Below, piece after piece: positions 2,095 through 38,299 of a stretch of 64,000 nt of DNA (the stretch's first letter is position 1; each line of letters begins with the position of its first letter). The notes below the pieces were generated by a model that saw only the letters and a list, made by a program, of their open reading frames with translations, was not told the DNA's origin and did no database searches. The stretch is from Centroscyllium fabricii. Its lineage: Eukaryota. The translations under genes were made by a program, and so were the position numbers. The stretch spans positions 558,001-622,000 of the forward strand of contig JBNRSN020000190.1 in NCBI GenBank assembly GCA_051313645.2, in the 5' to 3' direction.

Positions 2095-3720
2095 GATTGA
2101 ACAGTTCATTATAAGACGGTCCGGCGGTCGTTTCTTCCTGGAGGACTGTCGGCGCACCGGTGTTGGAGGTGATGCCTCCATGGTTGAATAGTCCGCCTCT
2201 GCCGGCGCTGTGACTTCCGGTGGCGGTGTGCTCGTCGGGTCGCAGTCAGGGAAACTCGGGGGCAATCCTGTGTCTGGTGGGTGAACAACTTGATGGCCGG
2301 CGGGGGGTGCTGTCGTGGTGTTTCCGGCCGGGGCCAGGTCCCTGATGGACACGGTGTCCTCACGCCCGTCTGGGAACTGCACGATGGCGTACTGTGGGTT
2401 GGCGTGTAGTAGCTGTACCTTGTCCACCAGGGGGTCCATTTTGTGGCTCCGGACGTGTCTCTTAAGTAAAACCGGCCCCGGAGTCGTCAGCCATGGGGGA
2501 AGGGCTGTTCCCGAAGTAGACCTCCTGTGGAACGAAAAAATGAGATCATGCGGAGTGGCGTTAGTAGCAGTACACAACAGTGATCGGATAGAGTGCAGCG
2601 CATCTGGGAGGACTGCCTGCCAATGGGACACTGGAAGGCCTCTGGACTTGAGAGCCAGGGTGACCGCCTTCCAGATGATCCCATTCTCCCTTTCTACCTG
2701 GCCGTTCCCCCGGGGGTTATAACTGGTCGTTCTGCTCGTGGCAACCCCTCTCTGGAGCAGAAACTGGCGCAGTTCATCGCTCATGAACGATGACCCCCGG
2801 TCGCTATGGATGTAGCCGGGGAGACCGAAAATGGCGAACAGCGTGGTGAAATGTTTGATCACCGTTGCGCTCGTCATATCTGGGCAGGGGAAAGCGAAGG
2901 GGAAGCGGGAGAACTCATTCACTACCGTGAGGAAGTATGAGTTGCGGTCGGTGGAGGGGAGGGGGCCTTTGAAGTCTACGCTGAGATGTTCAAAGGGGTG
3001 GGTGGCCTTGATGAGATGCGTCGTGTCTGGCCGGAAAAAGTGGGGTTTGCACTCGGCACAGACAGGGCACTCTCTGGTTATATCCTTGATCTCCGTGATG
3101 GAGTAGGGGAGGCTACGGGATTTGACGAAATGGGCGAGTCTGGTGACACCCGGCTGACAAAGGCGGTCATGGAGGTCCTTCAGCCGGTCTAGCTGGGCAC
3201 TGGCGCACGTTCCCCTGGACAGTGCGTCCGGGGTTTCATTGAGTTTACCTGGTCGGTAAAGAATGTCGTACTCGTAAGTCGAGAGTTCGAACCGCCACCG
3301 CAGGATCTTATCATTCTTGATTTTACCCCGTAGTTTATTATTAAACATAAACGCCACCGACCGTTGGTCGGTGAGCAGGGTAAAACGCTTACCGGCCAGG
3401 TAATGACGCCAGTAGCGCACGGCCTCCACAATGGCCTGAGCCTCCTTTTCCACTGCAGAGTGGCGAGTCTCGGGTCCCTGTAGGGTGCGGGAGAAAAACG
3501 CTACGGGCCTGCCTGCCTGATTCAGGGTGGCAGCAAGGGCAAAGTCCGAAGCGTCGCTCTCCACCTGGAAGGGAATGGATTCATCAACAGCGAGCATGGT
3601 CGCCTTGACGATGTCTTCCTTTATCTTTGCAAAAGCCGTCTGGGCTTCTGCAGAAAGGGGGAAGGCGGCAGCCTTGAGAAGTGGTCTAGCCTTATCTGCG
3701 AACTGTGGGACCCATTGTGC
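2095..3720 (-). pseudogene. RNase H and integrase part of the copy 1 polyprotein
   Basis: RNase H VESDASDFALAA/EKEAQAIV/TDQRS. Integrase zinc finger (one His reads Q) and VDFKG/HSDRG/VEREN DDE residues. No chromodomain. Confidence 0.92.
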
Positions 3721-6556
3721 ATCTCCTCAAGGCTTTGGGGTTGTGAGGTAGGGGCAGTTCTTGCAGGGGTCGCATACGCTGTGGGTCGGGGCCGAGGAGC
3801 CCGTTCTCCACCACGTATCCGAGAATGGCGAGCCGGGTTGTATTAAAGACACATTTGTCTTTGTTATACGTAAGGTCCAGCTTGTCCGCCGTGGCGAGGA
3901 ATTTGGCCAGATTGGCATCGTGGTCCTGCTGGTCGTGGCCGCAGATGGTCACGTTGTCCAGGTAAGGGAAGGTGGCCTGCAAGTCATTCTGGTCAACCAT
4001 ACGGTCCATCTCCCGTTGGAACACGGACACTCCATTGGTCACGCCAAAGGGGACCCGGAGGAAGTGGTAGAGCCGACCGTTCGCCTCGAAGGCGGTGTAG
4101 GGGCGGTCGGCTTTCCGAATCGGGAGCTGATGATACACCGATTTAAGGTCGATCGTAGAGAACACCTTGTACTGGGCGATCTGATTGACCATGTCCGAGA
4201 TGCGGGGAAGGGGGTAGGCGTCGAGCCCGGTGTAGCGGTTGATAGTCTGGCTGTAATCGATCACCAGCCGTTGTTTCTCGCCAGACTTCACCACCACAAC
4301 TTGGGCGCGCCAGGGGCTGGTGCTGGCTTCAATTATTCCCTCCTTTAGCATCCGCCCGACCTCCGACCTGATAAACGTGCGATCCCCCTCACTGTACCGC
4401 CGACTCTTAGTGGCAATGGGCTTGCACTTGGGATCGAGGTTGGCGAACAGCGAGGGGGGGTCGATTTTCAGGGTGGAGAGGCCGCAGGCCGGGCTCCGCT
4501 TTGGGGGGGAATTCTCCCGGCTACTGACGGTGAGTGAGGGTAAGGTCCCGCCGAACTCCACTGTCACACTCTGGAAGTGGCACTGGAAATCCAAACCTAG
4601 TAAGGCTGGGGCACACAACTGTTGGAGGGTATACAATCTAAAATTACGGTACACGCGCCCCTTGACGGTGAGCGTGACGGAGCAGTAGCCGGTGACGTCC
4701 GCGGTGTGGGACTGTGAAGCTAGGGAGATTTGGTAGTTGGTGGGCAGGATCTGCAGTCCGCAGCGCCGCACTGTATCCGGGTGGATGAAACTCTCCATGC
4801 TGCCTGTGTCGAAAAGACAGTCAAAAGTATGGTTGTTAATCTTTATAGGTATTATTGAGTTAGACAGGGTATGAGGCCTGCCCTGGCTAACTCTGATTTT
4901 AGCTGCAGCAGCAGCCCCTGCTGGTCGGGGCTGTGCACAAGATGGCCTTGCCCCAAAACAAAATGGCGTCGTCCCTGCCCCGCACAGAGAGGGGCACTCG
5001 TGACAAAATGGCGTCGCCCCTGGCCCACAGCTCGTGGAACCCCGTACATCTGATGACGTCGCCCCAAAACAAAATGGCGCCGTCCCTGCCCCGCACAGTG
5101 AGGGGCCCTTGAAGCAAAATGGCGCCGCCCCTGGCCCGCAGCTCGCGGAACCCCGTACATCTGATGACGTCGCCCCAAAACAAAATGGCGCCGTCCCTGC
5201 CCCGCACAGGGAGGGGCCCTTGAAGCAAAATGGCACCGCCCCTGGCCCGCAGCTCGCGGAACCCCGTACATCTGATGACGTCACCCCTGCCCCGCACGTG
5301 GAGGAGCCCTTGGTATAGGGAGAGATTGCCCCTGGCCCGCAGCTCGTGGAACCCCGTACATCTGATGACGTCGCCCCAGCCCTGCACGTGGAGGAGCCCT
5401 TGGTATTAGGAGACGTCGCCCCTGGCCCGCAGCTCGAGGGACCCCGTGCATAAGATGGCGCCGTCCTTGGCCCGCATATGGAGGGGCTCTGTCTCTGGCA
5501 TGGAGCCTCTGAAGGGCCCTGTGAACGCGCTGGCGGCGCCCGTGATTCGCACGCAGCGGACCGCGGTGGTCGGTTTGGCGGTGCCCGTGATTCGCACGCA
5601 GCCGGCCGCGTTGGGGGGTTGCGCTTGGCCGGCCTTCTCTGCATCAGGTAAGAAGGGGTGGGGGGTGGGGGCGCTCGTTGTCTACCCCCGTACCGTCGCT
5701 GGATCGCGCTGCTAATGCATCTTACCTGGTCGGTGCTCTCACAGGCTGCACTGTTGTACCTTCTGCTAGGCGCTTGTGGAGATGCTGCTGGAGCTGACTT
5801 GCAGACCCTAGCGAAGTGCCCCTTCTTCGAGCATTTTTCACAGCTCGCTGTCCTGGCTGGACATTTCGCTCTAGGGTGCAGTCCTTGGCCGCAGAAGTAA
5901 CAGTGCTTATTTTTAATGTCTTTAGTGACCGTCGCGGCCATCGTGGGGGCCTCGGCCCGTGGCGCCCAGGCCTGGGCCTGTTGTGGCGCGGCCCATATGT
6001 TGTAGGCTTGCGGGTTTGTGCAGCTGTACGCCTGTAACTTGCTACGGGCCCCCTCTACCGATTTGGCTAACTTGGTCGCCTCCTCGAGGGTCAAATTGTC
6101 TCTCTCAAGTAGCCGCTGACGGGCTTCTACACACCTCAGTCCTGTGACGTAAGCGTCCCGAACGAGGAGTTCTTCCTCCTCTGCAATAGTGGTGCCTTTG
6201 CAGCCACAGGCCCGTACCAGGGCCAGGAGCGCTTGCTCAAACTCCTCGTTTGACTCACCCGGTAGCTGGGATCGGGTCGCCAGCACGTGTCGGGCATAGA
6301 CAGAGTGGACCTGGCGTTCGTAGCATTTCTTCAGGACTTCTACGGTTTTTTCGTAGGTTGGGGTGTTCATGACGAGGGTGAATACCCTGCTGGAGATCCT
6401 AGATCTCAGGACATGTAGCTTGTCCTTGTCCGAAGTAGCCTTGGCGGCTTCCGTGTAGGCCTCCAGTAGGCCGAACCAGTGTTTGAAGGTAGCGGGAGCA
6501 GCCGCGTCCTGGGGACTGATGTCCAGCTTCTCAGGCTTTACCGTGCTGCAATCCAT
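3692..6556 (-). pseudogene. gag-protease-RT part of the copy 1 polyprotein
   Basis: ATG at 6556 (MDCSTVKP). CCHC-type knuckles CYFCGQGLHPRAKC and CEKCSKKGHFARVC, protease LFDTGS, RT PFGVTNG...YLDN. Frame is broken near 3720 by a short deletion relative to copy 2. Confidence 0.92.
4935..5610 (-). repeat. in-frame coding tandem repeats in the gag-protease linker of copy 1
   Basis: Repeated ~42-nt modules encoding SSDVRGSxSCGPGA / PFCFKGPSLCGAGT, many containing sense GCGCCATTTTG. Confidence 0.85.
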
Positions 6557-6878
6557 TTTAACTTTTAGCAATTAAAATTGATGTATCGTCGATGACTCCA
6601 ATTAAAAGACGACAAGTAGATACCGAAACTAAAAGGCTTTTAATTGCTAAACAATGGAGCTACTCTCCAGACGAACAACTGTACAGAACTGGGTGGAGCC
6701 CCGGTCAGACCACACCTATATAGAGCCTCACAAGGGGAGGAGTCGGGGGTGTGGCTGACCTAGCTCCCAACAAGATTACAGTAAACAGGGCTGTGCCCAA
6801 CATCTGCACAGCCCATAATTAGTCATGGTAATACATTGGAATAACTGTGGAATACAGTGGAATAGAACGGTTACCACA

Positions 6879-7625
6879 GCGCCGCACTGTCGGAGGGTGA
6901 GTACTGAGGAAGCGCCGCACTGTCAGATGGGCAGTACTGAGGGAGCACCGCACTGTCGGATGGGCAGTACTGTGGGAGCGCCGCACTGTCGGAGGGGCAG
7001 TGCTGAGGGAGAGCCACAGTCAGAGGGGCAGTACCGAGGGAGCGCCGCACTGTCGGAGGGGCAGTACTGTGGGAGCGCCGCACTGTCGGAGGGTCAGTAC
7101 TGTGGGAGCGCTGCACTGTCAGAGGGACAGTACTGAGAGAGTGCTGCACTGTCGGAGGGACAATACTGTGGGAGAGCCGCACTGTTGGAGGGGCAGTACT
7201 GAGAGAGCGCTGCACTGTCGGAGGGACAATACTGTGGGAGAGCCGCACTGTCGGAGGGGCAGTACTGAGGGAGCGCTGCACTGTTGGAGGCCCCGTCTGG
7301 TCTCTCAGGTGGATGTAGAAGAGCCTGCAGCCACTATTGGAAGAAGAGCAGGGGAGTTCTCCCCAGTGTCCTGGGACTAACATTTATCCCTCAACCAACA
7401 TCACTGAAATCAGCTGATCTAGTCATTTATTGGCTTTGTGGGATCTTGCTGTGCACAAATTGGCAGCTGCGGTTCCCTAAATTACAACAGTGACTACACT
7501 TCAAAGGACCTGCCCTAATTTATCCTTATGTGGCTCGGTATCAAATTGTTTGTCTTAAAATACTCCTGAGAAGCGCCTTGGGCCGTTTTACTACGTTAAA
7601 GGCGCTATATAAATTCAACTTGTTG
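6879..7625 (+). mobile_element. 33-bp minisatellite (~12 units, to ~7290) continuing into a Deu-domain (SacSINE1/AmnSINE1-like) SINE body and tail
   Basis: Array is followed by ggccccgtctg..tctcaggtggatgtagaag...gaagaagagcaggggagttctcccc...ccctcaaccaacatcac, recognised from memory as the Deu-domain core. Confidence 0.75.
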
Positions 7626-8841: not shown

Positions 8842-10412
8842 ATGAGTAGAAAACAAACATTGCTGAAGAGCTTCTTTGAAAAGGGTGAAAGACCCAAAGA
8901 TGAGACAGCAGAAGACTCCAAGACTGCCAAGACTGCTTCGCCACGTGGAGACCAAACACCCTGCATTAAAAGACAAGCCTTTGCAGTTTTTTGAAAGAAA
9001 AAAACGTGAACACGAAGGACAGAAGCAATTATTGAAGGGCACCACATCAAATGTGTCTGCACTGAGAGCATCATTCTTAGTGGCTAACCGCATTGCCAAG
9101 GCTAAGAAGCCCTTCACTATTGCTGAAGAGTTGATCCTGCCTGCCGCTGAGGACATTTGCCGTGAACTTTTAGGAGAGGCATTGAGGCACAATTGTTAGA
9201 GGATTAATGAGTCACCGTGGTACGCAATCCAGGTTGACGAGTCTACCGACATCGACAACAAGGCAATAATGCTTGTTTTTGTGCGATATATTTTTCAGGG
9301 GGAGGTGGATGAGGATATGTTATGTACATTATTGTTGCCAACCAACACCACAGCTGCAGAACTATTCAAGTCTTTGGATGATTACATATCAGGAAAACTA
9401 AACTGGTCATTTTGTGTCGGTGTATGCACGGACGGAGCGGCTGCCATGACTGGACGGCTTTCTGGTTTCACTACTCGGGTCAAAGAGGTCGTGTCTGAAT
9501 GTGAGTCTACGCACTGTGTCATCCACAGAGAAATGCTGGCTAGCCGAAAAATGTCACCTGAACTTAACAGCGTTTTGAAAGATGTGATTACAGTTATTAA
9601 CCACATCAAAGTACATGCCCTTAACTCGCGTCTGTTCGAGCAGCTCTGTGAGGAGATGGACGCGGAGCACAAACGTCTTCTCTTTTCCACAGAAGTGAGA
9701 TGGCTTTCCAAAGGTAGATCGCTGGCCAGAGTTTTTGAGTTACGAGAGCCGCTTCATAGATTTCTTTTAGAAAAACAGTCACCATTTGCAGCNNNNNNNN
9801 NNNNNNNNNNNNNNNNNNNNNNNNNNNNNNNNNNNNNNNNNNNNNNNNNNNNNNNNNNNNNNNNNNNNNNNNNNNNNNNNNNNNNNNNNNNNNNNNNNNN
9901 NNNNNNNNNNNNNNNNNNNNNNNNNNNNNNNNNNNNNNNNNNNNNNNNNNNNNNNNNNNNNNNNTGTTTCAAACATTAGCAGTGATTTTGGAAGAGACTG
10001 AGCCTGGGCCTTCATTCTCCCAGCTGCTGCACGATCACCTATCTCAGATTGTAAAAGAGTTTGAGCGTTACTTTCCAACCACAAAAGACCCGCGAACTAG
10101 GAAGGAATGGATCCGTGACCCATTTGTGAACAAGCCGGGTGAATCGACCTTGTCCTGGAAGAGGACCAACTACTTGAGATCGCAAATGATGGTGGCCTTA
10201 TATATCCTGCGCTCGCCACAAAAGCACTGAAAACCCTGCTTCCATTTCCAACATCCTATCTTTGTGAAGCGGGGTTTTCTGCAGTGACAGCAACCAAAAC
10301 GAAATTACGGAGTAGACTGGACATAAGGAACACACTTCGGGTGTCACTGTCTCCCATCACCCCTAGATGGGACCGTCTCGTTGCAGGGAAACAAGCTCAG
10401 TGCTCCCACTGA
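8842..10412 (+). pseudogene. hAT/Buster (ZBED5/SCAND3-like) transposase pseudogene
   Basis: Peptides HVETKHPALKDKPLQFFERKK, ALRASFLVANRIAKAKKPFTIAEELILPAA, QVDESTD, CTDGAAAM, HCVIHRE, EVRWLSKG and FPTSYLCEAGFS in several frames. Multiple deletions and frameshifts; spans the N gap. Confidence 0.9.
9793..9964. other. assembly gap (172 N)
   Basis: Run of n characters. Confidence 1.
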
Positions 10413-10765
10413 TTCTGCATTATGGTGAGTTGAGTCACATTTACATTATAAATGTAATAAGTAAATTAATAATTAAATTATATTGTGGTAACCCTTATAT
10501 GGGTAACCCTTATATGGGTTACCATTGTTGTATACCTGTGTGCAAAGATGCTGCTGGGAGCCAGGTCAGCCACACCCCCGACTCCTCCCCCAGGTGGGAG
10601 TACTATAAAGGTGTGGTCTGACCCAGCCCCTTTCATTCCTGTATGTGATCTGCCGAGGAGATTAGCTCCATTCTTTATTAATTAAAAGCCTTGTATTAAC
10701 GGTAACTACGAGTCGTCTTTAATTAAGTTAGCGACCACGCTACAATTTTAATTAATAATTTTACA

Positions 10766-13700
10766 ATGGAGAGCAGCACGGTAAGGCCTCGGGAGCTGGA
10801 CATTAGCCCCCAGGATGCCGCGGCACCGATCACCTTCAAGCTCTGGTTCAGAGTGCTAGAGGCCTATATGGCAGTCGCCAAGGCTGAAACGGATGCGCAA
10901 AAACTGCAAGTACTGCTATCCAAGATCTCCAGCAGGGTTTTCACCCTCATCGAGGACCACACAACATACGTGGAAACGGTGGCGACCCTCAAGAGGTACT
11001 ACGAGCGCCCGGCTCACACGGTCTACGCCCGCCACCTACTAGCGACCCGACCTCAACTACCCGGTGAGTCAAACGACGAGTTTGAGCAAGCGCTCCGGGG
11101 CATGATACGGGCCTGTGGCTGTAAGGGTGGAACGACTATGATACAGGAGGAAAACCTCCTCCTCCGGGACGCCTTCGTCTCAGGACTAAGATGCACAGTA
11201 GCACGTCAGAGGCTATTGGAAAAGGAAAATCTGACCTTTGAAGAGGCAACCGCGTTAGCTAAATCGGTGGAAGGGGCCCGCAACAAATCTCAGATGTACG
11301 GTGGTACCAGCTACCAAGCTTACAACGTTTGGGCCACGACCCAACAGGCGCCACGGATCGAGAGCCCCACCATGGCCGCGACGGCCACCACGGACACTAA
11401 GCATAAACATTGTTATTTTTGCGGCAAAGGATTGCACCCCAGGGCAAAGTGTCCAGCCAAGACGGCGACCTGTGACAAATGCTCCAAGAAGGGACACTTC
11501 TCAAAGGTCTGCAGATCCAATCCAGCTGCAGCACCAAAAAGGTACAACAGTGCCTGTGAGAGCTCTCAGGAACAGGTAAGCTGCATTTGCAGTAATTTAT
11601 CCCGACGGCAAGCGCCCCCCCCACCTCGATGCAGCAGCGACCAGCCGAACGCGACCCTCCTACGCGGCCGGCTGCGTGCGAACCACGGGCGCCCCCAGCG
11701 CGTTCACCGCGGTTCGCTGCGTGCTAATCACGGGCACCGCCAGCGCCTTCACCGCGGCTCGCTGCGTGCGAATCACGGGCACCGCCAGCGCCTTCACCGC
11801 GGTTCGCTGCGTGCGAATCACGGGCACCGCCAGCGCCTTCACCGCGGTTCGCTGCATGCGAATCACGGGCACCGCCAGCGCCTTCACCGCGGTTAGCTGC
11901 GTGTGGATCACGGGCACCGCCAGCACGCCAGCAAACCGAATCTTGTCTTCCCCCAGGTCCCTCCATGTGCGAGCCAGGGGGGCGGCCATCTTGTCTTCCC
12001 CCAGGCCCCTCCATGTGCGAGCCAGGGCGGCGGCCATTTTGTCGGGGGCGGCCATCTTGTCTTCCCCCAGGTCCCTCCATGTGCGAGCCAGGGGGGCGGC
12101 CATCTTGTCTTCCCCCAGGCCCCTCCATGTGCGAGCCAGGGGGGTGGCCATTTTGTCAGGTCCCCTCCACGTGCGAGCCAGGGGGGCGGCCATCTTGTAT
12201 TCAGGGCCCCTCCATGTGCGAGCCAGGGGGGCGGCCATTTTGTCAGGTCCCCTCCACGTGCGAGCCAGGAGGGCGGCCATCTTGTATTCAGGGCCCCTCC
12301 ATGTGCGAGCCAGGGGGGCGGCCATTTTGTTTTCAGGGCCCCTCCATGTGCAAGCCAGGGGGGCGGCCATTTTGTGCGCAGCTCCCTTCAGCAGGGGCTG
12401 CGGCAACCGGACCTACAGTTAGCCAGGACAAGCCCCACACACTGTCTAACTCCATAAGGCCAATCAAAATCAACGATCACACGGTCAACTGCCTTTTTGA
12501 CACGGGCAGCACCGAGAGCTTTATCCACCCTAATACAGTGCGGTGCTTCGGACTGCAGGTCCTGCCCACTAACTACCAAGTCTCATTAGCTTCACAGTCC
12601 CACACCGCGGACGTCACCGGCTACTGCTCCGTCATGCTCACCGTCCAGGGACGCATGTACCATAATTTTAAATTGTATACCCTCCAGCAGTTGTGTGCCC
12701 CAGCCTTACTAGGTCTGGACTTCCAGTGCCACTTCAGGAGTGTGACAATGGAGTTCGGCGGGACCCTTCCCCCACTCACCCTCAGTAGCCGGGACAATCT
12801 CCTCCCAAAGCGGACCCCGGCCTGCGGCCTCTCCACCCTGAAAATTGATCCCCCCTCGCTGTTCGCCAACCTCGATCCGAAGTGCAAACCTATCGCCACT
12901 AAGAGTCGGCGGTACAGCGAGGGGGACCGCACGTTTATCAGGTCGGAGGTCGGGCGGATGCTAAAGGAGGGGATTATTGAAGCCAGCACCAGCCCCTGGC
13001 GCGCCCAAGTTGTAGTGGTGAAGTCTGGCGACAAACAATGGCTGGTTATCGATTACAGCCAGACTATCAACCGCTACACCGGGCTCGACGCCTACCCGCT
13101 TCCCCGCATCTCGGAAATGGTCAATCAGATCGCCCAGTACAAGGTGTTCTCCACGATCGACCTTAAATCGGCGTATCACCAGCTCCCGATCCGGAAAGCT
13201 GACCGCCCCTACACCGCCTTCGAGGCGAACGGTCGGCTCTATCACTTCCTCCGGGTCCCCTTTGGTGTGACCAACGGAGTGTCAGTGTTCCAGCGGGAGA
13301 TGGACCGTATGGTTGATCAAAATGACTTGCAGGCCACCTTCCCTTACCTGGACAACGTGACCATCTGCGGCCACGACCAGCAGGACCACGATGCCAATCT
13401 GGCCAAATTCCTTGACACGGCGGCTAAGCTGGACCTTACGTATAACAAAGACAAATGTGTCTTTAATACAGACCGGCTTGCCATCCTCGGATACGTGGTG
13501 GAGAACGGGCTCCTCGGCCCCGACCCACAGCATATGCGACCCCTGCTAGAACTGCCCTTACCTCACAACCCCAAAGCCTTGAGGAGATATCTAGGATTTT
13601 TCTCCTACTATGCACAATGGGTCCCGCAGTTCGCAGACAAGGCTAGACCACTCCTCAAGGCTGCCGTCTTCCCTCTTTCTATAGAAGCTCAAACGGCATT

Positions 13701-15245
13701 CGAAAAGATAAAAGGAGATATTATCAAGGCGACCATGCTCGCTGTTGATGAATCCATCCCTTTCCAGGTGGAGAGTGACGCTTCGGACTTTGCCCTTGCT
13801 GCCACCCTGAATCAGGCAGGCAGGCCCGTAGCGTTTTTCTCCCGCACCTTACAGGGACCCGAAACTCGCCACTCAGCAGTGGAAAAGGAGGCCCAGGCCA
13901 TTGTGGAGGCCGTGCGCTACTGGCGTCATTACCTGGCCGGTAAGCGTTTTACCCTGCTCACCGACCAACGGTCGGTGGCGTTTATTTTTAACAATAAACT
14001 ACGGGGTAAAATCAAGAATGATAAGATCATGCGGTGGCGGATCGATCGAACTCTCGACTTACGAGTACGACATTCTTTACCGACCAGGTAAACTCAATGA
14101 ACCCCCGGGCGCACTGTCCAGGGGAACGTGCGCCAGTGCCCAGCTAGACCGGCTGAAGGACCTCCACGACCGCCTCTGCCACCCGGGTGTCACCAGACTC
14201 GCCCATTTTGTCAAATCCCGTAGCCTCCCCTACTCCATCACGGAGATCAAGGCTATGACCCGAGATTGCCCTGTCTGCGCCGAGTGCAAACCCCACTTTT
14301 TCCGGCCAGACACGGCGCACCTCATCAAGGCCACCCGCCCCTTTGAACGCCTCAGCGTAGACTTCAAAGGCCCCCTCCCCTCCACTGACCGCAACTCATA
14401 CTTCCTCACGGTAGTGGATGAGTTCTCCCGCTTCCCCTTCACCTTCCCCTGCCCAGATATGACGAGCGCAACGGTGATAAAACACTTCACCACGCTGTTC
14501 GCCATCTTCGGTCTCCCCAGCTACATCCATAGCGACCGGGGGTCATCGTTCATGAGCGATGAACTGCGTCAGTTTCTGCTCCAGAGAGGGGTTGCCATGA
14601 GCAGAACGACCAGTTACAACCCCCGGGGGAACGGCCAGGTAGAAAGGGAGAATGGGATCATTTGGAAGGCGGTCACCCTGGCCCTCAAGTCCAGAGGCCT
14701 TCCAGTGCCCCATTGGCAGGCAGTCCTCCCAGACGCGCTGCACTCTATTAGGTCGTTATTATGTACAGCTACTAATGCCACCCCGCACGATCTTGTTTTT
14801 TCTTTCAACAGGAAGTCAACTTCGGGGACGGCGCTCCCACCATGGCTGACGACCCCTGGGCCGGTGTTCCTTAAGCGGCACGTTCGGTGCCACAAGACGG
14901 ATTCCCCTGGTGGACAAGGTACAGCTCCTACACGCCAACCCGCACTATGCCTTTGTGCAGTTCCCAGACGGGCGTGAGGACACCGTGTCCATCAGGGACC
15001 TGGCCCCGGCCGGCAACACCGCCACAGCGCCTCCTGCTGGCCAGCAGGTCGACCCACCTTCAGACACAAGAGGGGCCCCGAGTTTCCCCGCCGATGCACC
15101 AGACGAGGTCCAGCAGAACCCACCACGTCCTGAAACTACAGCACCGACGGAGGCGGGCTATTCGGCCATGGGGGCATCACCACCAACATCGGAACCCCGG
15201 CGGTCCACAAGACAGACGCGACCGCCGGAGAGACTTATCACGAAC
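10766..15245 (+). pseudogene. gag-pol polyprotein of copy 2, broken into pieces
   Basis: gag from 10766 (zinc knuckles); PR-RT-RH ORF 11965-14091 (LFDTGS, YLDN at 13345-13356); integrase 14050-15000. Frameshifts near 11620, 14041 (ATCG duplication) and 14905. Confidence 0.92.
11665..12378 (+). repeat. tandem repeats in the gag-protease linker of copy 2
   Basis: ~6 copies of a 45-bp unit (gctgcgtgcgaatcacgggcaccgccagcgccttcaccgcggttc), then ~10 copies of a 42-48-bp unit containing GGCGGCCAT(T/C)TTG. Confidence 0.9.
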
Positions 15246-15677
15246 TGTTCGATACATTCACCCCACCCCCCGGACTCAAAGTTTTTAACAAGGGGTGAAT
15301 GTGGTAACCCTTATATGGGTAACACTTATATGGGTTACCATTGTTGTATACCTGTGTGCAAAGATGCTGCTGGGAGCCAGGTCAGCCACACCCCCGACTC
15401 CTCCCCCCAGGTGGGAGCACTATAAAGGTGTGGTCTGACCCAGCCCCTTTCATTCCTGTATGTGATCTGCCGAGGAGATTAGCTCCATTCTTTATTAATT
15501 AAAAGCCTTGTATTAACGGTAACTACGAGTCGTCTTTAATTAAGTTAGCGACCACGCTACATATATAATATGCACTTTATTGTGTTTTGTTATGCGCGTG
15601 ACGGCAATGGGGGCAGATTCTGGCAGACAGCAGGCAACAGAAATGGCCGCCTGGCACCTCGCCTTTAATTAGCACGG

Positions 15678-16270: not shown

Positions 16271-17274
16271 GCATGGTAAAACCCATCTTTGTAAATAGTG
16301 ATGTATCAGACTCCTTTATTACATCACTCACCACCACCTTCTCAGGGCAACTAGGGATGGGCAATAAGTGTTGGCCAACCCTAGTTTTGTATCAAACCTC
16401 GGTTAGACCACATTTGGAGCACTGTGCACACTTCTGGTCTCCATATTATAAGAAGGTTGCACTGCTGCCTCGCAATAAGGAGCTCCCGTGTTCGTGTGGG
16501 TTTCCTGTGGCGGAGCAGGCTCAAAGGGCCGAATGGCCTACTCCTGCTCCTATCTTCTGTGTTTCTGCATATAGAGGTACTGGAGAAGGTGAAAAAAAGA
16601 TACCAGAACTGAAAGGTTCTAGTTATTGGGACAGGATGAACAGAAGAGGATGTCGGGAAGCTCCAGTGCCTGAGGGGTGACCTGATGGGGTTGACGTAGA
16701 GAAGATGCTTCCACTTGTGGGAGAGAACTTGGGGTCATCAATACAAGATCGTCACTAACAAATCCAGTCGGGAATTCAGGAGAAACTTCTTCACCCAGAG
16801 AGTGGTGAGAATGGGGAACTGGCCACCACGGAGTGGTCGAGGGGAAGAGTGTAGATGGATTTAAGGGGAAGCTGGATAAACACACTGGGGAGAAAGGAAT
16901 CGCAGGATATGGGGATGGGGTGAGATGAAGAGGGTGGGAGGAAACACTGGCACGAAGCATGGTGGAGTGGCCTGTTTCTATGCTGTAAATAGTAATTACT
17001 GAAGTGGTTCTGGTGAGTTTATTTGGAGGATTGATTGCTGGATCAGGGCCTGTTGCTTTGAACGGGAGCTGGTGAGTGAGCCACATGCAGAGGGTGATTG
17101 ATCGCCTCGTATAGTGCATTTGCCATGTATCTGCCCATTCCCCCAACTTGTCCAAATCGCACTGGAGCTTCCCGACATCCTCTTCAGAGCCGACCCCACC
17201 TCCTAGTTTAGTGTCGTCTGCAAATTTGGAGATGTTGCATCTAATTCCCTGGTCCAGATCATTAATATATATTA

Positions 17275-17470
17275 AAGGCAGAGAGAGAGGCGGACAGGTT
17301 TAGGGGGGGAATTCCAGAGCTTGGGGCCCAGGCAGCTGAAGGCACGGCCGCCAATGGTGGAGTTAAGGGAACGGGGATGCGCAAGAGGCCAGAATTGGAG
17401 GAGCGCAGAGATCTGGGAGGGTTGTAGGACTGGAGGAGGTTACAGAGATAGGGAGGGGTGAGGGTCATGC
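17275..17470 (-). mobile_element. L2-type LINE 3' fragment (paralogues 39578-39770 and 30365-30655; related copy 45620-45870)
   Basis: PPYLCNLLQSYNPPRSLRSSNSGLL...GGRAFS peptide typical of the L2 ORF2 C-terminus. Confidence 0.75.
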
Positions 17471-17704
17471 TGGAGATGACGTAGCACCTTGAGGTAGTGA
17501 CATTTAAGTAGCCTGCAATGACCACCGTCCCCCGCACCCCACCCACATTGTAATCTGTCTTGACTGTTTAACCTGAGCAAGTGCTCTGACAGTGACCCCA
17601 AATCGGCTGGCTGGGGGGGACGGGCAGGAACTGCTAATGGGAAAGTCTCGATCAGGAGCATTTCCCTCTGGTTTCCCATCCGATTTCTCACTGATCTTTC
17701 AAGT

Positions 17705-18665
17705 TCAGTACCCCGTAGCCTGAAGAAATATATCCAATTCCCTCTTAAATATATTAATGAACTGGCCTCCACTGGAATTACACAGGCCCACCACTCTCTG
17801 GGTGAAGAATTGCATATCTGTCCTAAATAGTTTACCCCTTATCCTTAGACTGTGGCCCCTGGTTCTGGACTCCCCCACCATTGGAAACATTCTTTCTGAA
17901 TCTAACCTGTCTAGCTGTCAGAATTTTATATGTTTCGATGAGATCCCCTCTCAATCTTCTAAACTCCAGCGAGTACAAGCCCAAACTACACAATCTCTCC
18001 TCGTAGGTCATTCCTGCCATTCCAGGTATCGTCCTGGTGAATCGCCGCTGCACTCCTTCCATGGCAAGAACATCCTTCCTCAGATGAGGCGACCAAAACT
18101 GTACACAATACTCAAGGTGTGGTCTCACCAGTGCCTTGTACAGCTGTAGTAAGGTATCCTTATTCCTATACTCAAACCCTCTTGATATGAAGGCCAACAT
18201 ACCATTTGCCTTCTTAACCACCTGTTGCACCTGCATGCTCGCCCTCAGTGACTGGTGCACAAGAACACCCAGGTCTCTCTGCACTTCCCCATCTCCCAAT
18301 CTATAACCTCACATTTATCCACATTATAGTGCATTTGCCATGTATCTGCCCACTCCCCTTCAGAGCCAACCCCCCCTCCTAGTTTAGTGTCGTCTGCAAA
18401 TTTGGAGATGTTGCATCCAATTCCCTGGTCCAGATCATTAATATATATTGTGAACAGCTGGGGTCCCAGGACAGATCCCTGCGGCACCCCACTAGTCACC
18501 GTCTGCCACTCAGAAAACGAGCCGTTTATTCCAACTCTCTGTTTTCTATCTGCCAGCCAGTTCTCTATCCACGTCAATACTTTGCCCCAATCCCATGAGC
18601 CTTAATTTTGCATGCTAATCTTATCGAAGGCTTTCTGGAAGTCAAGGTACACCACATCTACTGGC
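17705..18665 (-). mobile_element. CR1 LINE ORF2 (RT) fragment with internal deletions
   Basis: SGVPQGSVLGPQLFTIYINDL, KFADDTK, LYKALVRPHLEYCVQFWSP, RRLRGDLIETYKI. Confidence 0.93.
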
Positions 18666-19626
18666 TCTCTGTCCGATCCCGTCCCTATTTACAGCCAATG
18701 AAGTACTTTTTTGAAGTGCAGTCACTGTTGTAATGTGGGAGACGCAGTAGCCAATTTATGCATAGCAAGCTCCCACAAACAGCAACGTGATAAAATGAGC
18801 AGATTATTTGGTTTTCGCGATGTTGGTTGAAGGATGGATATTGGCCCCAGAACACCGGGGAGAACTCCCCCCTGCTCTCTCAGTATTGCCCCTCCGACAG
18901 TGCGGCACTCTCTCAGTACTGCCCCTCCGACAGTGCTCATTAAAGGCGAGGTGCCAGGCGGCTATTTCTGTTGCCTGCCGTCTGCCAGAATCTGCCCCCA
19001 TTGCCGTCCCGGGTTGAGGCGTAGCAGGGGGGGTCGGAGTTCTAAAGCGGGACTAAGAATTGGAGAGGTTTAGAGAGGGAGGCCCGGAGCTGAGGGCCTA
19101 GGTGGGTTGATTGTTGAGTATCAGAATGATTGCTGTGGTTTTGCTTTATCTCAATCAGTCGCAGCCGGAACGCTGCTGAGTGCCAAATGTATCAGCATCC
19201 AGTTCAATACCGAGCTCTCTCCATCATAGAAACATGGAAACATAGCAGGAATAAGCCATTCGGCCCCTCGAGCCTGCTCCGCCATTCAATGAGATCATGG
19301 CTGATCATCCAAACTCATCAGTACCCCGCCCAATCACCCCTGTCCAAATCATCCTGCACTAGTCACAGCCTGCCAACCTGAAAAAATCTATGAATGGCCG
19401 ACTCCTATTTCTTATGTTCTTAATGAATGTAAGCTGTATCTAGCACTAAACCTTCAACCACACATCCACTCATTGCATCATGAAACAAGTAAATGTACAC
19501 AATGGACAAGATTCAGGTTTGCTAATCAATAAATTTATTGTGGTATCAAACATCCTTGGTTTTTCCCGCGTCTTCCAGTCTTCCCGCCTTTGCAAGTCTC
19601 TTTCGGCGCCGGGTCTCGACAACCAC

Positions 19627-19945
19627 TTCTGGTTCCTGCTGCCGATTGCTGCTGCCGATTCTGCTGGTTCCTGCAGATTCTGCTGGTTCCTGTTGCCGAT
19701 TGCTGTTGGTTCCTGCAGATTCTGCTGGTTCCTGCTGCCGATTCTGCTGGTTCCTGTTGCCGATTGCTGTTGGTTCCTGCAGATTCTGCTGGTTCCTGCT
19801 GCCGATTCTGCTGGTTCCTGCCGATTCTGCTGGTTCCTGCCGATTCTGCTGGTTCCTGCAGATTCTGCTGGTTCCTGCTGCCGATTCTGCTGGTTCCTGC
19901 TGGTTCCTGCAGATTCTGCTGGTTCCTGCTGCTGATTTCTGCTGG
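19627..19945. repeat. 19-22-bp minisatellite (CTGGTTCCTGC[TG]CCGATTCTG)
   Basis: ~15 units. Absent at the paralogous site (~36675). Shorter related arrays at 22150-22235 and 34650-34735. Confidence 0.9.
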
Positions 19946-21037
19946 CACCTCCATCTGCTGGGGAAAAGTCAATCTCCCCTCATCCTCTCAGCTCCCAGTA
20001 GTAATTCCGTGTCCCCGAGGAGTCTGCCTGGAATGGGAGATAAGTGGACAGATCAACAAGATATATACAAACACATTAAACAGAACTATATACAATAACC
20101 GTACAGTGTGAATCATACCAAAAGGTACTGATGTAAAAAAGACTTACCAAGCTTTGAGTGTGATGCACGATCAATTATACTCAATCATACAGAGCTAGCA
20201 CAAGTGTGCTCGACATGGTGTAATAAAGTTCGTCAGTTTAGCTTTAGTTTGGCTGGCGCTATAGTGAGATTGACACATATGCGAGGCTCTCCTGACTTTT
20301 TTGCTACTACTAACATGCCTGAGCACCATTAAGTGGGCTCCTCTTTACTTGAAGTTTTGGAATGTCATCTTTGAATACAGTATTAAACACATCGGGCCCT
20401 GTTTTCCTGTGCTCCAGAGGAGCTGCACCCCCACGAAGGGGGGTCAGAAATGCCTCGTGGGGGTGCAGCACAGGGGATGCCCACGAACAGGAATTTCCTG
20501 TGCTGATGGGCAAGGCCCTTCAGCTCCCAACGCAGGAAGACCTTGCACTGACGATTTCCTGTCAGAACGGGTGATTTTTAGAGAGTAATTCCGTGTGCAA
20601 CTGGCTCACAAGCTGCCCACGAAAAAACCAGGAGTAAGAGGGAGAAGATTTAGTTTTTGAAGCAGGTAAGTTAATTGTTTAACTTTAATTTTAAGTTTTT
20701 ACAGTTTTGGGGAGTAGTGTGGCCAGATCGGTAGCATTAAATTTTTAAGTTAAAGTTTAAATTTTTTAACAAATCCGATTTTAAGTTAATTTACCTGTTT
20801 CAAATCGCTAATTTTCAAAGTTACATTTCTGAAATTTTTAACTCTCTAGCTAATTAAAAAAAAAAAAAAATCTAAGGAAAAAATGGTTGACTTACCTTCC
20901 GTTTCTTCCTCTGAGAAGCTGCTGTGCCACCGCGCTGCTCCCCGTGAGTCTGTTGTGCAGCTCCGCACTTCCCTGCTCTCACTAAGGTCCGACTCGGATC
21001 CTTGCTTCCTCATATTAAAACCTGCTCTTTCATAAAC

Positions 21038-21543
21038 TTCCGGTTCTTCTTCCGGTTACCGGGAGCGGGACCAAGATGGCGGCGCGTGTACACGCAGCGG
21101 CTCTGCGTCTCCCGGGGATGCTGTCCGCTGGTAGTCCCGAGGCTGTTCGCTCGGTGGGGATGTCGGGTTCGTCGTGGAGGTGCATAGAAGTCGGACTTGT
21201 TGGAGCACTGGGGAGCCTGCGAGGTCACCGAGGTCAAAGCGCCGGAGGTCGGCAGGTACGGAGCACTGGGTCCTGCAGAGACAGTGTGCCTGTGTGGTCA
21301 CCGTGGTTACCGAGTTTGGGGCGTTGGAGGTCGGCGGGTTCGGGGCGTTGGGACCAACGGAGTCGGAGTGCCGGTGCCTGCATGGTCGGAGCACCATTGA
21401 GGGCCAACATGAAGTGAACAGTCTGGGACTTGTAAGCAGGACATTTTAAAGAGCTGCATCGTTCTGGGAAGGTTGCAAAAAAGACATTTCGTTGTACTGT
21501 ATTTTGCTGTACAATGACAATAAATTTGAATCTGAATCTGAAA
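21038..21543 (+). mobile_element. short non-LTR-type insertion present only in the left arm
   Basis: GC-rich head with CCAAGATGGCGGCG. Ends in ACAATAAA plus a (GAATCT)n tail. Abuts the degenerate gag fragment. Confidence 0.55.
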
Positions 21544-22529
21544 TCACGTTCTTCTTCACCACAAAGAATGCCAGAAATCCATCTCTTACTGCGCCATACT
21601 GTAGTTGTTGAGCGTCGGATAGATTCAGTCCTTTCAGAACGTCATCCGCTTCGTCTTCCATACAGTACATAAGATCACTTGGTTCGCCTGTGTGGTTGTA
21701 TGGAGAACACGGCAAAACTACTCTCGCTATACTCACCTCTCGTTTTCTGTCACCCGGAACCTCAAGTAATGTACTTTGACCCTACCCATAATGACCCTTG
21801 CCATTATGTTAATGCCCTGCCTGGAATGAGATATAAGTGGGCGGAGCATTCTCATTTAGAGGCGGGGTCAGCCGGTACAGGTCCTTACAGAAAGGTAAAG
21901 ACATTAACAGATATATAACAAGATATATACAAACACATTAAACAGAACTATATACAAACCATAGTGTGAACCACACCAAAAGGTTCCTCACAGCTTCGTC
22001 GCCCTGGATCCTCCCGTTCGACCCCGGTGTGTGACTGTTTGCCGTTGTTCTGGCCCCACCTCGAGCCGATATCCGATGCTTCTGCTGGCTGGGTACTGCT
22101 TCGCGGCCTTCCTGCCGCTGCTGAGCTGGGCACCCGATTCTGATGGCTCTCCTGCTGCAGACTCTCCTGGTTCCTGCAGACTCTGCTGGTTCCTGCTCCG
22201 ATTGCTGCTGGCTGCTGCAGATTCTGCTGGTTCCTTCAAGTATTACTGTACAGCAGGTGTGTTGAGCACAGCCCACACATGGAAACTGTCGAATCACTGC
22301 CGATTTCTGCTGGCACCTCCCTCTGCTGGGGAAAAGTCAATCTCCCCTCATCCTCTCTGTTCCCAGTAGTAATTCCAAATCTGCTGTTTTCCCTCTTGTC
22401 TGCCCCATCAATCCTGAACACCTCCAGCTTCCATGTGTGGGGTGGGCTGTGCTCAACACACCTGCTGTACAGTAATACTTGCTCAGAAACCGCCCTCATA
22501 TTTATAGCGGGGCCGTACAATCCCCAATC

Positions 22530-22685
22530 AAGCCTTCAATTCCAAATTAGGCCTTCAATCCCAAATTAGGCCTTCAATCCCAACAAAGGCCACCAATCAG
22601 GCCTTCAATCCCAAATAAGGCCTTCAAACCCAACAAAGGCCATCAATCCCTAATAATGCCTTCAATCCCAAATAAGGCCTTCAGC
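22530..22685. repeat. ~19-bp minisatellite (GGCCTTCAATCCCAAATTA); paralogue 34200-34365
   Basis: ~7 degenerate units. Confidence 0.85.
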
Positions 22686-24089
22686 TGAGCCAGGTTTGAA
22701 CAGTGCCCCCTCGGGGTTGGTCTCCTCACGGACCCCTCCCCCCATGATCCAGCTCCAGCCCCATCTTGGCATTGTGACAGAATCGGGGGTAATATGTGTG
22801 ACCAACATGTGTGTCTGTCCATCGCAAGATCTTTCTGTGCTGCAAATGTAAAACAATCTGTAAACTCAAAACAGCCAAATCCCTCGATACCCACACCAAA
22901 CACAAATATCTCAGGTCTTGAAAGCTTCAGTTGACCCCCAGCCTCAACAGCTTTTTAAATTGGAAATGAGGAAGAATTTCTTCTGAGGGTCGTGAATCAT
23001 TGGAATCCTCTTCCCCAGAGAGCTGTGGAGGGCTGGGTCATTGAATTAAGGTGGAGATGGACAGAGTTTTGCTCGATACGGGAGTCGAGGGTTATGGGGA
23101 GCGGGCAGGAAAGTGGATTGAGGCCAAGATCGGATCAGCCATGATCTTATTGAATGGCGGAGCAGGCTCGAGGGGCTGAATGACCGACTCCTGCTCCTAC
23201 ATCTTAGGTTCTAATGTCTTACGTCAGAAACTTTTTTACGCAGCGACTGGTGAGGACCTGGAATTCGCTGCCAATAGAAGTGGTGGAAGGAGCTGCGCTC
23301 CGAAAGCTTGTGATTTAAAATAAAACTGTTGGACTATAACTTGGTGTTGTGTGACTTCTTGCATGAGGGAAATAAACCTGCAGGGCTTCGGGGATAGAGC
23401 GGGGGGATGGGACTGACTGGATTGCTCTACAGAGCGAGCCGGCATGTGAGAGAGTTTTAAACACACTGCTCACTTTAATTATCCACGATGGCTTCTGCCA
23501 TGCTGTGTGATAATTCCCACAATGCGATCTGTGGGCGTAGGAGATCGTGGCAGTTAGTGTTTAGCACCACCACAAAACCACTGGTCAATTTCGCAAGCGG
23601 CGCAAAACTCGCTGTGCTCAAGCGCTAATTTGCTGGCCTCCACGGGGCGCCTATGGGGTGAAAATCAACTAGCGCCTGAACACGCGCCACTTTTGCGCAC
23701 CCGTGAAATTCAGCAGGAGGTTAGCGCAGTGCTAACCGTTAGCGCCACCTGGCGGTGCACTACTGGCGATGATGTAATCGCCATGCGCAGCTCCCCGCTC
23801 ACGTCCCAGCTGTAATATTGGGTGGCGCCCCCCCCCGCCCCCTGCGACTTACCGCCCGATGCTATGTCCACTGGGGTCAGGGTGGCCTACCTGTGGCCGG
23901 AACGGCGCTAGTTAAAGGGGAGGAGGCGGGCGGCCATTTTTTGGGGAGATTTCCTGCCAGCACCTGCCCCCGTTGCTGCCCCCGGCACATAGCACCACGA
24001 TATTGGCTCGCAGGAGGGGTAGTTGTGCCCCTCCTCCCTCTCGGGATGCTACCTGGGAAAATTGGCTCAAATTCTGAACTGACTCACTT

Positions 24090-24820
24090 CAGAATTTGAG
24101 CCAATAATCCAGGCTGATATTCCAGAGGGGCAGTACTGAGGGAGCGCCGCACTGTCGGAGGGGCAGTACTGAGGGAGCGCCGCACTGTCAGAGGGTCAGT
24201 ACTGAGGGAGTGCCGCACTGTCGGAGGGGCAGTACTGAGGGAGCGCCGCACTGTCGGAGGGGCAGTACTGAGGGAGCGCCGCATTGTCGGAGGGGCAGTA
24301 CTGAGGGAGCGCCGCATTGTCAGAGGGTCAGTACTGAGGGAGTGCCGCACTGTCGGAGGGGCAGTACTGAGGGAGTGCCGCATTGTCAGAGGAACAGTAC
24401 TGAGGGAGCGCCGCACTGTCGGAGGGGCAGTACTGAGGGAGCGCCGCACTGTCGGAGGGGCAGTACTGAGGGAGCGCCGCACTGTCGGAGGGGCAGTACT
24501 GAGGGAGCGCCGCACTGTCAGAGGGTCAGTACTGAGGGAGTGCCGCACTGTTGGAGGGGCAGTACTGAGGGAGCGCCGCACTGTCGGAGGGGCAGTACTG
24601 AGGGAGCAGGGGGGAGTTCTCCCCGGTGTTCTGGGGCCAATATCCATCCTTCAACCAACATCGCGAAAACCAAATAATCTGCTCATTTTATCACGTTGCT
24701 GTTTGTGGGAGCTTGCTGTGCGCAAATTGGCTACTGCGTCTCCCACATTACAACAGTGACTGCAATTCAAAAAAGTACTTCATTGGCTGTAAAGTACTCT
24801 GGGGTGTCCCGAGGTTGTGA
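24090..24820 (+). mobile_element. Deu-domain SINE with expanded 33-bp minisatellite (24126-24606, ~14 units)
   Basis: Array is followed by the gggagttctccccggtg...tcaaccaacatc SINE body. Confidence 0.8.
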
Positions 24821-25490
24821 AAGGTAATCAGCAAGGCACGAAGTCAGCTATGCTGAGGAAGAGCAGGCGAGAGATTGCCCTCCGATTCTTATTCCATGGT
24901 GAGAAATCGGATGGGAAACCGAAGGGAAATGCTCCTGATCGAGACTTTCCCATCAGCAGTTCCTGCCCGTCTCCCCCAGCCAGCCGATTCCTTCCTCTCT
25001 GCTTCTGCCTTCTTTGTTTGGAGCTTTGATTGGAAATTGAGGCCTGATTGGCAAGGCCCGTTTCCGTGCCGAGTTCCGACTGCAGAAGGTAGCAAAGTTC
25101 AAAAGCCGAATGCTTCCGAAGGGAAAGATAAACACAGTCCTGGCAAGGTGACAAGTGATCCATCAGGCAGATGAAAGGGGGCCCCTCGGACTCTGGGGGA
25201 GTGACAGGCAGTTGCGCGCCCATTCAGTCAAGACCATGTGTGATAAACTGTATATCACTGTAATACCATGTAACACCTGTATAGCACTGTAATACCATGT
25301 AACAACTGTATGATACACCTGGCACCGCCCATGACTCCTCCCCCACCGGAGGAGGTACATAAGGGACTGTCCCCATCCCCCGTGCCATTCTGGGGACAGT
25401 CAGCTCGGTTGTGTATCTCCAACGTAGTTAATTAAAGCCTGATTATTATAACTAACTATTCGACTCCGAAGACGTTATTGACGGTTACAA

Positions 25491-25503
25491 TTTAATTAAC
25501 TAC
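25491..25503 (+). promoter_or_regulatory. non-tRNA, self-complementary PBS-position element of copy 3 (equivalents 10746-10758 and 6564-6577)
   Basis: TTTAATTAACTAC, one base after the LTR-terminal CA, is the exact reverse complement of LTR 25424-25436 GTAGTTAATTAAA. Function is inferred. Confidence 0.8.
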
Positions 25504-25508
25504 TTGAA

Positions 25509-29579: not shown

Positions 29580-30096
29580 TCAAAAGAACGTTAATTGTAT
29601 ATACTTCGTTATTGAGTCAAAAGAACGTTAAATGGATATATTTCGTTATTGAGCACAGTGTAATTAGTTGTTTTCTTTTTCCCTTTTTGTACCCCCCCGC
29701 GTGTTGTTCACCCCACCGTATTTTGGTTTTAAAGAAGGGGTGAATGTGATAAACTGTATATCACTGTAATACCATGTAACACCTGTATAGCACTGTAATA
29801 CCATGTAACAACTGTATGATACACCTGGCACCGCCCATGACTCCTCCCCCACCGGAGGAGGTACATAAGGGACTGTCCCCATCCCCCGTGCCATTCTGGG
29901 GACAGTCAGCTCGGTTGTGTATCTCCAACGTAGTTAATTAAAGCCTGATTATTATAACTAACTATTCGACTCCGAAGACGTTATTGACGGTTACACCATG
30001 ATTAATCAGCGGTCTTAACTGATGAGTGGATCAAACCTGGTCTCCCCTGCTAAGCGCCGGTTAATGCCAGACTGCGAGCTGGCCTGTTAAAGGCTG

Positions 30097-35000: not shown

Positions 35001-35139
35001 AGGACCTGTACCGGCTGACCCCGCCTCTAAAGGAGAATGCTCCGCCCACTTATATCTCATTCCAGGCAGGGCATTAACATAATGGCAAGGGGCATTATGG
35101 GTAGGGTCAAAGTACATTACTTGAGGTTCCGGGTGACAG

Positions 35140-38280: not shown

Positions 38281-38299
38281 GGACGGGATCGGACAGAGA

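Follow-up and report, generated by a model that had tools for sequence, protein, structure and literature searches.

Probable self-priming by a long 5′ RNA piece in a tRNA-independent Ty3/Gypsy clade of Centroscyllium fabricii, and lineage-limited pairing over its gag start codon

The window analysed here, a stretch of 64,000 nucleotides from Centroscyllium fabricii (assembly GCA_051313645.2, contig JBNRSN020000190.1, positions 558,001 to 622,000 of the forward strand), carries three full-length Ty3/Gypsy elements of one clade, called copies 1, 2 and 3 below. The best reading of their 5′ ends, to which we give a probability of about 0.68, is that the clade is independent of transfer RNA (tRNA) and primes its reverse transcription with a long 5′ piece of its own RNA. 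In none of the three is the 5′ long terminal repeat (LTR) followed by TGG, hence there is no site for a tRNA 3′ end. The primer binding site (PBS) consists of one unpaired A and 13-14 nt complementary to a segment of the element's own repeat region (R) that ends in AWTAAA(A), a candidate poly(A) signal. Since copies 1-3 are related, they do not amount to three independent observations. Their relevant parts are as follows.

10484-15561, plus strand: copy 2, full-length element
10484-10744, plus strand: copy 2 5′ LTR, with TG..CA ends and a 5-bp target duplication TATAT
10604-10609, plus strand: putative TATA box of copy 2, 31 nt 5′ of the presumed start site
10633-10638, plus strand: initiator-like motif of copy 2; A 10635 is the presumed transcription start and primer 5′ end
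10635-10687, plus strand: putative 53-nt self-primer of copy 2, the RNA 5′ end; its 3′ end would arise by a cut between ATTAAAA and G
10657-10660, plus strand: GGAG of copy 2, local hairpin partner of CTCC in both LTRs and competitor of the AUG pairing
10666-10672, plus strand: CTCCATT of copy 2, R strand of the AUG pairing
10675-10687, plus strand: R strand of the 13-bp primer-PBS helix of copy 2
10681-10686, plus strand: ATTAAA of copy 2, candidate poly(A) signal within the helix
10718-10726, plus strand: second partner of the hexamer strand in copy 2, 9 nt, in U5 (the LTR part after R) and hence also in the 3′ LTR
10745-10758, plus strand: PBS position of copy 2, one unpaired A and 13 nt complementary to R (10746-10758)
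10765-10771, plus strand: AATGGAG of copy 2, 3′ strand of the AUG pairing; gag ATG at 10766-10768
15300-15561, plus strand: copy 2 3′ LTR
6878-1763, minus strand: copy 1, full-length element
6579-6878, minus strand: copy 1 5′ LTR, with a 14-bp R-PBS helix; TCCATT at 6658-6653
6552-6578, minus strand: copy 1 PBS and leader; gag ATG at 6556-6554
2052-1763, minus strand: copy 1 3′ LTR; target duplication GGCGC
25239-29995, plus strand: copy 3, full-length element
25239-25489, plus strand: copy 3 5′ LTR; R helix strand at 25424-25436
25490-25511, plus strand: copy 3 PBS and leader; gag ATG at 25509-25511
29745-29995, plus strand: copy 3 3′ LTR; target duplication CCATG

The PBS-R layout was searched for in the 7.2 billion bases of the genome, where its pattern matched 232,795 times and a control pattern twice; the 13-bp helix is far beyond chance. 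For a closer comparison we used family representatives, each a single real copy. Clustering of 148 5′ ends gave 39 clusters, from which nine (short-leader or deleted copies) were dropped and to which one was added to give 31 families; 18 of 24 further families were then included (six near-duplicate, short-leader or damaged at the gag start were dropped), for a total of 49 representatives, six of them non-shark contigs. Helix positions 1-13, counted from the primer end, form Watson-Crick pairs in 44-49 of the 49, whereas position 14 is paired in 29, position 15 in 13 and the base past the primer end in none. At the freely varying positions all four pair types are used and G-U occupies only 3 of 637 cells. 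In the general scheme of LTR replication the PBS is copied from the primer, and both the near-absence of wobble pairs and the sharp helix edge are expected from such templated copying. All six non-shark representatives possess the helix and four of them carry no canonical hexamer inside it, which makes priming rather than masking the common denominator. Full folds of 19 of the 31 families predicted the PBS-R helix in cis at near-full occupancy in most.

The extent of the primer upstream of the helix was read from aberrant copies carrying antisense R behind the PBS. With a pattern for the subclade of copies 1 and 2, 592 such copies were found against none for the control, and an independent case from the copy-3 family (L108) carries 35 nt of antisense R that follow the PBS where the leader would otherwise stand. 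Set against the 232,795 layout matches, read-through would occur at a rate well under 1 in 100, a rough ratio since the two patterns differ. We classified the ends in the first 100 listed of the 592 copies: 25 lie within -2..+1 of the initiator A, 17 of them exactly there, while 12 fall in U3 (the LTR part before R) or just upstream of the start and 22 early in R. The 25 initiator stops correspond to 11 independent junctions, a pile-up with a binomial p of about 1e-5 relative to other ends in or near R, and the initiator-like motif at which they stop sits about 30 nt behind a TATA box. A stop at this A needs a template that starts there, and only the RNA begins at that position. These ends put the 5′ terminus of the RNA some 40 nt before the paired segment, and the primer would measure 52-55 nt in the read-through copies and 53 nt in copy 2. 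No signature of a cap-templated extra base was seen by eye among the start-site junctions. A different kind of product is represented by 84 short-leader copies: among 30 examined, three have for a leader an exact complement of the primer, from which the sequence passes into gag at the AUG match, so this match is sometimes used during DNA synthesis.

Some of these aberrant copies have features of their own. The L108 case, on the minus strand, is a mini-element of about 600 bases with two LTRs, the PBS and 35-nt primer copy, the region preceding the polypurine tract (PPT) and a 5-bp target duplication. Fold-back mini-elements composed of LTR, PBS and inverted R-U3, both of whose ends are U3 ends, were found at L144, L153, L155, L157, L160, L161, L169 and L170; perfect 5-bp target duplications flank 8 of 10 fold-back elements checked, which apparently integrated as hairpin-derived DNA. 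An identical junction into gag recurs at many loci (L150, L158, L178, L180, L188, L190, L192, L211, L226, L230, L234), and read-through copies L152, L163 and L222 likewise share a gag junction at many loci. Such shared-junction copies have seemingly spread as non-autonomous families with a permanent R hairpin of ~53 bp.

We then considered the hexamer at the primer end. In the genome it is AATAAA or ATTAAA, with a matching PBS. Position 1 changed on both strands was counted 64 times (control 35) and C or G at position 2 on both strands four times (control 1), whereas the base just upstream of the hexamer takes all four letters. Pairing alone would tolerate compensated forms and a poly(A) signal would not, so the restriction fits a poly(A) signal. 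In predicted folds of the 5′ end the hexamer of copies 1-3 is paired with a probability of 0.89-1.0. The median predicted cost of opening it over the 49 families is 5.8 kcal/mol at the 5′ end versus 1.5 kcal/mol at the 3′ end; opening is more than 2 kcal/mol costlier at the 5′ end in 36 families, and the two ends differ by no more than 0.5 kcal/mol in seven. With real flanks the predicted costs (5′ versus 3′) are 8.0 and 0.9 kcal/mol in copy 3, 3.6 and 2.3 in copy 1 and 2.2 and 2.0 in copy 2; shorter folding windows gave 4.5 kcal/mol for the copy 2 family. The weak asymmetry of copies 1 and 2 is explained by the second hexamer partner in U5, which measures 8-11 nt in 9 of the 20 families of subclade A (the subclade that holds copies 1 and 2) and fits the R of its own family somewhat better than that of others (p 0.011, relatedness not controlled). 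The earlier note had placed the partner strand only downstream of the 5′ LTR; this does not hold for copies 1 and 2, whose 9-nt U5 partner of the hexamer stands in both LTRs, nor for CTCC, with which GGAG (10657-10660) pairs locally in both. On these predicted folds, it is plausible that the helix masks the poly(A) signal of the 5′ LTR. A further, logical support for a poly(A) signal comes from the replication scheme: were the primer removed just past the hexamer, an RNA 3′ end lying beyond that point would be required for the first strand transfer.

The second partner in U5 looks PBS-like in copy 2 (10718-10726) and in L054, L083, L067, L245, L244, L073, L048 and L348, and that of L054 resembles a short insertion relative to the sister family L043. 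Insertions that would preserve a poly(A) tail were also looked for: the pattern gave 55 rows including repeats, and the first 30 loci and one more, which were inspected, contained no clean case. The best candidate (L384:6728-7390) was rejected. There a fragment of a long interspersed nuclear element (LINE), presumably CR1-like, interrupts a 3′ LTR 16 nt past the hexamer, LTR sequence resumes on its far side, and a run of ~17 A at the 5′ junction of the LINE mimics a poly(A) tail. Three other LTR-like pieces have candidate A-runs 11, 18 and 19 nt past the hexamer. Near 4879 of L386 (the same place as L299), an LTR-like piece with a 10-A run 18 nt after AATAAA is joined to integrase-coding sequence, possibly by a template switch onto a poly(A) tail.

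A model of self-priming would run as follows. Transcription would start at the initiator A, and RNA nucleotides 41-53 would pair with the PBS some 57 nt downstream. This pairing would hide the hexamer at the 5′ end only, as a by-product or as a second use of the helix, and at the 3′ LTR the hexamer would serve as the poly(A) signal. In the particle an endonucleolytic cut between AWTAAAA and G, perhaps by RNase H as in Tf1, would release a capped piece of ~53 nt that primes short minus-strand strong-stop DNA. The plus strand would as a rule take in 13-14 nt of primer sequence, which restores the PBS, and only rarely extend on toward the cap; as every cycle would make the PBS anew from the primer, the two helix strands would stay matched. 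The AUG and the first ten codons, by their own pairing, would then supply an optional outer clamp worth 2-5 kcal/mol on the AU-rich 13-bp duplex: extending the primer from 13 to 25 nt strengthens predicted binding by 5.1 (copy 2), 2.3 (copy 1) and 4.0 kcal/mol (copy 3). The clamp would slide in register between families and occasionally let read-through DNA re-enter there. Once its 5′ piece has been turned into a primer, an RNA lacks its cap, so the presumed cut would be the only firm either-or in the scheme. One may go further and see in the capped 53-nt piece of an animal-wide Gypsy clade a three-way control, in which a single refolding switches polyadenylation, translation and priming: the AWUAAA end would be held by the intra-LTR partner and then by the PBS, silencing the 5′ poly(A) signal, clamping the gag start and setting the cut. 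We consider this speculative and rather unlikely; if true, the failed products that map it would lie by the hundred in the host genome.

The start codon was the most striking part of the original claim, and it is the least supported. The earlier note had proposed that the 5′ duplex extends over the gag AUG and forms an RNA switch, and all the pairings it had located are present: CTCCATT (10666-10672) with AATGGAG (10765-10771) in copy 2, TCCATT (6658-6653) with AATGGA (6557-6552) in copy 1, a bulged match of 25413-25421 with the gag start at 25509 in copy 3, and CTCCATT in a lone LTR (46197-46203). Leaders of 19-24 nt agree with the short LTR-gag distance (~20 nt) it had given. The AUG partner is not of the U5-AUG type it suggested, since it lies in R, 32-38 nt after the presumed start site and upstream of the hexamer. 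In copy 3 the bulged match stands, and the predicted pairing of A, U and G is 0.00, 0.01 and 0.90, leaving A and U unpaired. Predicted AUG pairing reaches 0.80-0.88 in copy 2 and 0.43-0.65 in copy 1, where a local GGAG-CTCC hairpin competes, and opening the AUG would cost 1.6 (copy 2), 1.3 (copy 1) and 4.1 kcal/mol (copy 3). Such an opening costs a scanning ribosome little.

In its full form the switch would have the extended helix mask both the 5′ poly(A) signal and the AUG, with the GGAG-CTCC hairpin and the U5 partner toggling the RNA between translation and packaging or priming. Alternative partners are available for both strands, and a helix of at least four Watson-Crick pairs that takes in both U and G of the AUG exists in 24 of the 49 families, where other LTR windows lead one to expect 8.6; the register is mostly the same (21 families) and the A is included in 14; in L123 the main helix itself extends to the A of the AUG. 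However, 21 of these 24 families fall in two large subclades, and over 14 independent groups the excess vanishes (3.1 observed versus 2.5 expected). R shows no preference for its own AUG region over those of other families (p 0.33-0.69; the result was null in both data sets), which is partly expected because AUGG is fixed. Matched changes are isolated (L337, L340, L246, L361, L265b, L321), whereas in subclade A codon 2 has changed from GAG in 8 of 20 families without a matching change of R in any of the eight, and the U of the AUG lacks a partner in 5 of the 20. An R form that mismatches the AUG is carried by 23 of the 100 read-through copies; the pairing is broken in successful, abundant families. 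The AUG helix is not conserved across lineages with compensatory changes. The HIV-1 (human immunodeficiency virus type 1) U5-AUG duplex, invoked as a precedent for regulation, is reported to affect dimerization and packaging and not to modulate translation, in the part of that study available to us (PMC3130279). Neither the dual switch nor a start-codon switch as a conserved mechanism is likely on this evidence. The AUG pairing is real in copy 2 and patchy among relatives, and a clamp for the primer is more likely than a translation switch. The duplex had also been offered as an alternative or additional role to priming; as an alternative it falls away, for priming is the best-supported role of the duplex. 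Routine copying of the primer was tried as the usual origin of the AUG match and rejected, since the helix stops at 13-14 bp and chimeric leaders make up only 3 of 30.

Could the match to the gag start be a coincidence? The promoter-proximal R motif would then merely happen to match AUGG, the hexamer would serve 3′ polyadenylation or the cut, and the 5′ signal would be ignored as too near the start rather than masked. A similar pyrimidine motif does stand at the same place in L345, L349, L352 and L336, whose gag start does not pair; shuffled R strands pair with gag nearly as much in the full folds, where the shuffling test was individually non-significant for most of the 19 families; and the seven families with little difference between hexamer costs at the two ends agree with it. 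Yet R from -30 to -8 before the helix prefers the codons 3-10 of its own gag to those of other groups (p 0.0003-0.0008 with 12-21 groups, control windows p 0.16-0.27, the windows being picked post hoc). A sliding R window gave a single peak of family-specific complementarity (z -4.2, or -3.2 for shark families) next to the helix on its upstream side; it is gone upstream of the start site, and the chimeric leaders show the match in use. Pure coincidence is very unlikely. A primer acting in trans seems improbable too, if less so: short capped RNAs ending early at the signal of a 5′ or solo LTR would anneal to the PBS and be trimmed, the signal being used rather than masked. The primer 3′ end does coincide with the end of the hexamer A-run, which is the duplex edge, read-through to the cap is compatible with any capped R RNA, and in L040, L245, L048 and L267 the PBS fits the R of a sister family better than their own. 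Co-packaged sister RNAs would explain these mismatched copies equally well, however, the helix is predicted to form in cis in most families folded, and in Tf1 the cut is made in cis, according to the portion of PMC7175516 consulted.

Several points weigh against self-priming as outlined above. The PBS-R complementarity with its edge, the hexamer restriction and the stops at the initiator A can be read from the DNA, whereas the start site, the cut and its enzyme, the use of the poly(A) signal, its masking and the clamp are deduced from it. The 49 representatives were chosen for having a helix, and their count lends no independent support. Primer positions 8-10 are constrained like the hexamer, whose restriction may partly stem from cutting or priming; the canonical hexamer is missing from the helix of the four non-shark representatives mentioned (L121 has AATAAA in the loop instead), and copy 2 with its real flanks displays no 5′/3′ asymmetry. 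Among the read-through copies, 41 of 100 reach the first base of the LTR. These are DNA fold-backs; since a fold-back can also yield antisense R, antisense R alone is no proof of an RNA primer, and the same copies indicate that the PBS end does anneal to R. The RNA template behind an initiator stop could be a second packaged RNA instead of a covalently linked primer. As to the clamp, the distal R-gag windows were picked with the data in view, gag windows elsewhere score too (z -3.8 at +28; for shark families only, z -3.1 at +280), and subclade A adds no distal signal. Contigs of four runs examined for RNA evidence span U3 as well and give no transcript ends.

The features of a Ty3/Gypsy element were found throughout: LTRs with TG..CA ends and a 5-bp target duplication in each full copy, a PPT, and gag followed by protease, reverse transcriptase (RT), RNase H and integrase, these four domains being identified by a Pfam scan. 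The RT motif is YLDN in all three copies (RT frames 3692-6571, 11728-14091 and 25500-29579), and the relatives fetched carry both YxDN and YxDD. The closest named relatives come from sharks and rays, more distant ones from cnidarians, a nematode and a crustacean; no relative was found in the viral contigs searched. Clade members also occur inside records titled as bacterial metagenome-assembled genomes (L314, L315, L316), most likely by contamination. Two other LTR pieces in the window are related to these copies.

46084-46269, plus strand: solitary LTR from a sister family; carries CTCCATT (46197-46203) and AATAAA, without a PBS behind it
56617-56885, plus strand: 3′ LTR (AATAAA form) belonging to a truncated fourth member of the clade

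The same window holds two Gypsy elements of another clade (51415-54933, plus strand, and 58434-62414, minus strand) with a TGG-type PBS, as for a tRNA primer, and this pair provides a natural contrast to the self-primed clade. Among its other features is a large inverted duplication (about 16300-23450 versus 33400-41800), many arms of which are 98-100% complementary. Arrays of a 33-nt minisatellite lie at 1473-1904, 6858-7386 and 23991-24752 and from 37442 on, one of them being split by copy 1. Copy 2 begins its U3 with a palindrome (10486-10524) and has 45-nt tandem repeats between gag and protease (11611-12423); copy 1 has 111/90-nt repeats at 4941-5467. Just 5′ of copy 2, a fragment at about 9975-10415 seems to resemble the C-terminal part of a hAT transposase.

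To our knowledge, self-priming is known in detail only from Tf1 of fission yeast. The shark clade resembles Tf1 and Tf2 (Schizosaccharomyces pombe), Tj1 (S. japonicus) and the Tf1/sushi group at large in that the PBS is complementary to the element's own R. The Tf1 RNA pairs with the PBS through its 11 leading bases, and RNase H cleaves it between bases 11 and 12, as described in the accessible parts of PMC7175516 and also of PMC4600332 and 10.1101/2022.12.06.519325. The Tf1 primer of 11 nt is thus wholly paired, whereas that of the shark clade would be about 53 nt long, pair by its last 13-14 nt only and end in a poly(A) hexamer; the paired segment does not lie at the RNA 5′ end as the segment of about 11 nt does in the Tf1/sushi group. 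Nor did a chromodomain family, which in that group stands at the integrase C-terminus, turn up when the frames of copies 1 and 3 were scanned with Pfam. Primer release by RNase H is suggested in the shark clade by the sharp helix edge. Additional duplexes differ as well, since Tf1 uses LTR sequence downstream of the primer (the ‘pretzel’) and the shark clade would use the primer upstream of the helix together with the gag start. Self-priming has also been predicted for the plant Tcn1 and TAR lineages, in the section of PMC6317226 that we could consult. The portions of PMC6238403, PMC8556966, PMC3670739, PMC2774666, PMC12471100 and PMC3592414 available to us contain nothing on the PBS of this clade, and our literature search, whose reach ended before subscription journals, Repbase reports and supplements, returned no description of a self-primer ending in a poly(A) signal; according to the excerpt of PMC3601003, Gypsy LTRs of animals commonly carry an AATAAA motif.

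With regard to the poly(A) signal, the closest parallel is the HIV-1 polyA hairpin, which masks AAUAAA according to the part of PMC3432602 at hand. Similarly, the hexamer of copies 1-3 is paired in the predicted 5′-end helix, and the intra-LTR partner of the 9 subclade-A families would form a hairpin at both ends, as in the excerpt of that report. Unlike in HIV-1, the main partner is the PBS, which lies outside the repeat, so that the main helix would form at the 5′ end only, the same strand would be the primer, and the masking is a prediction. The likeness to the HIV-1 U5-AUG duplex is that a strand of the 5′ repeat pairs over the gag start codon; the difference is that this partner lies in R, comprises 4-9 bp in a variable register and is missing in many families. 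A vertebrate genome here carries more than 230,000 5′ ends of a non-chromovirus clade that apparently has a self-priming of its own, with a primer five times longer than that of Tf1. If the reading holds, one helix would solve two problems of LTR elements, namely the source of the primer and the skipping of the 5′ poly(A) signal. The read-through copies suggest a general method as well, in which the DNA of aberrant insertions is enough to locate the transcription start and the primer ends of a retroelement.

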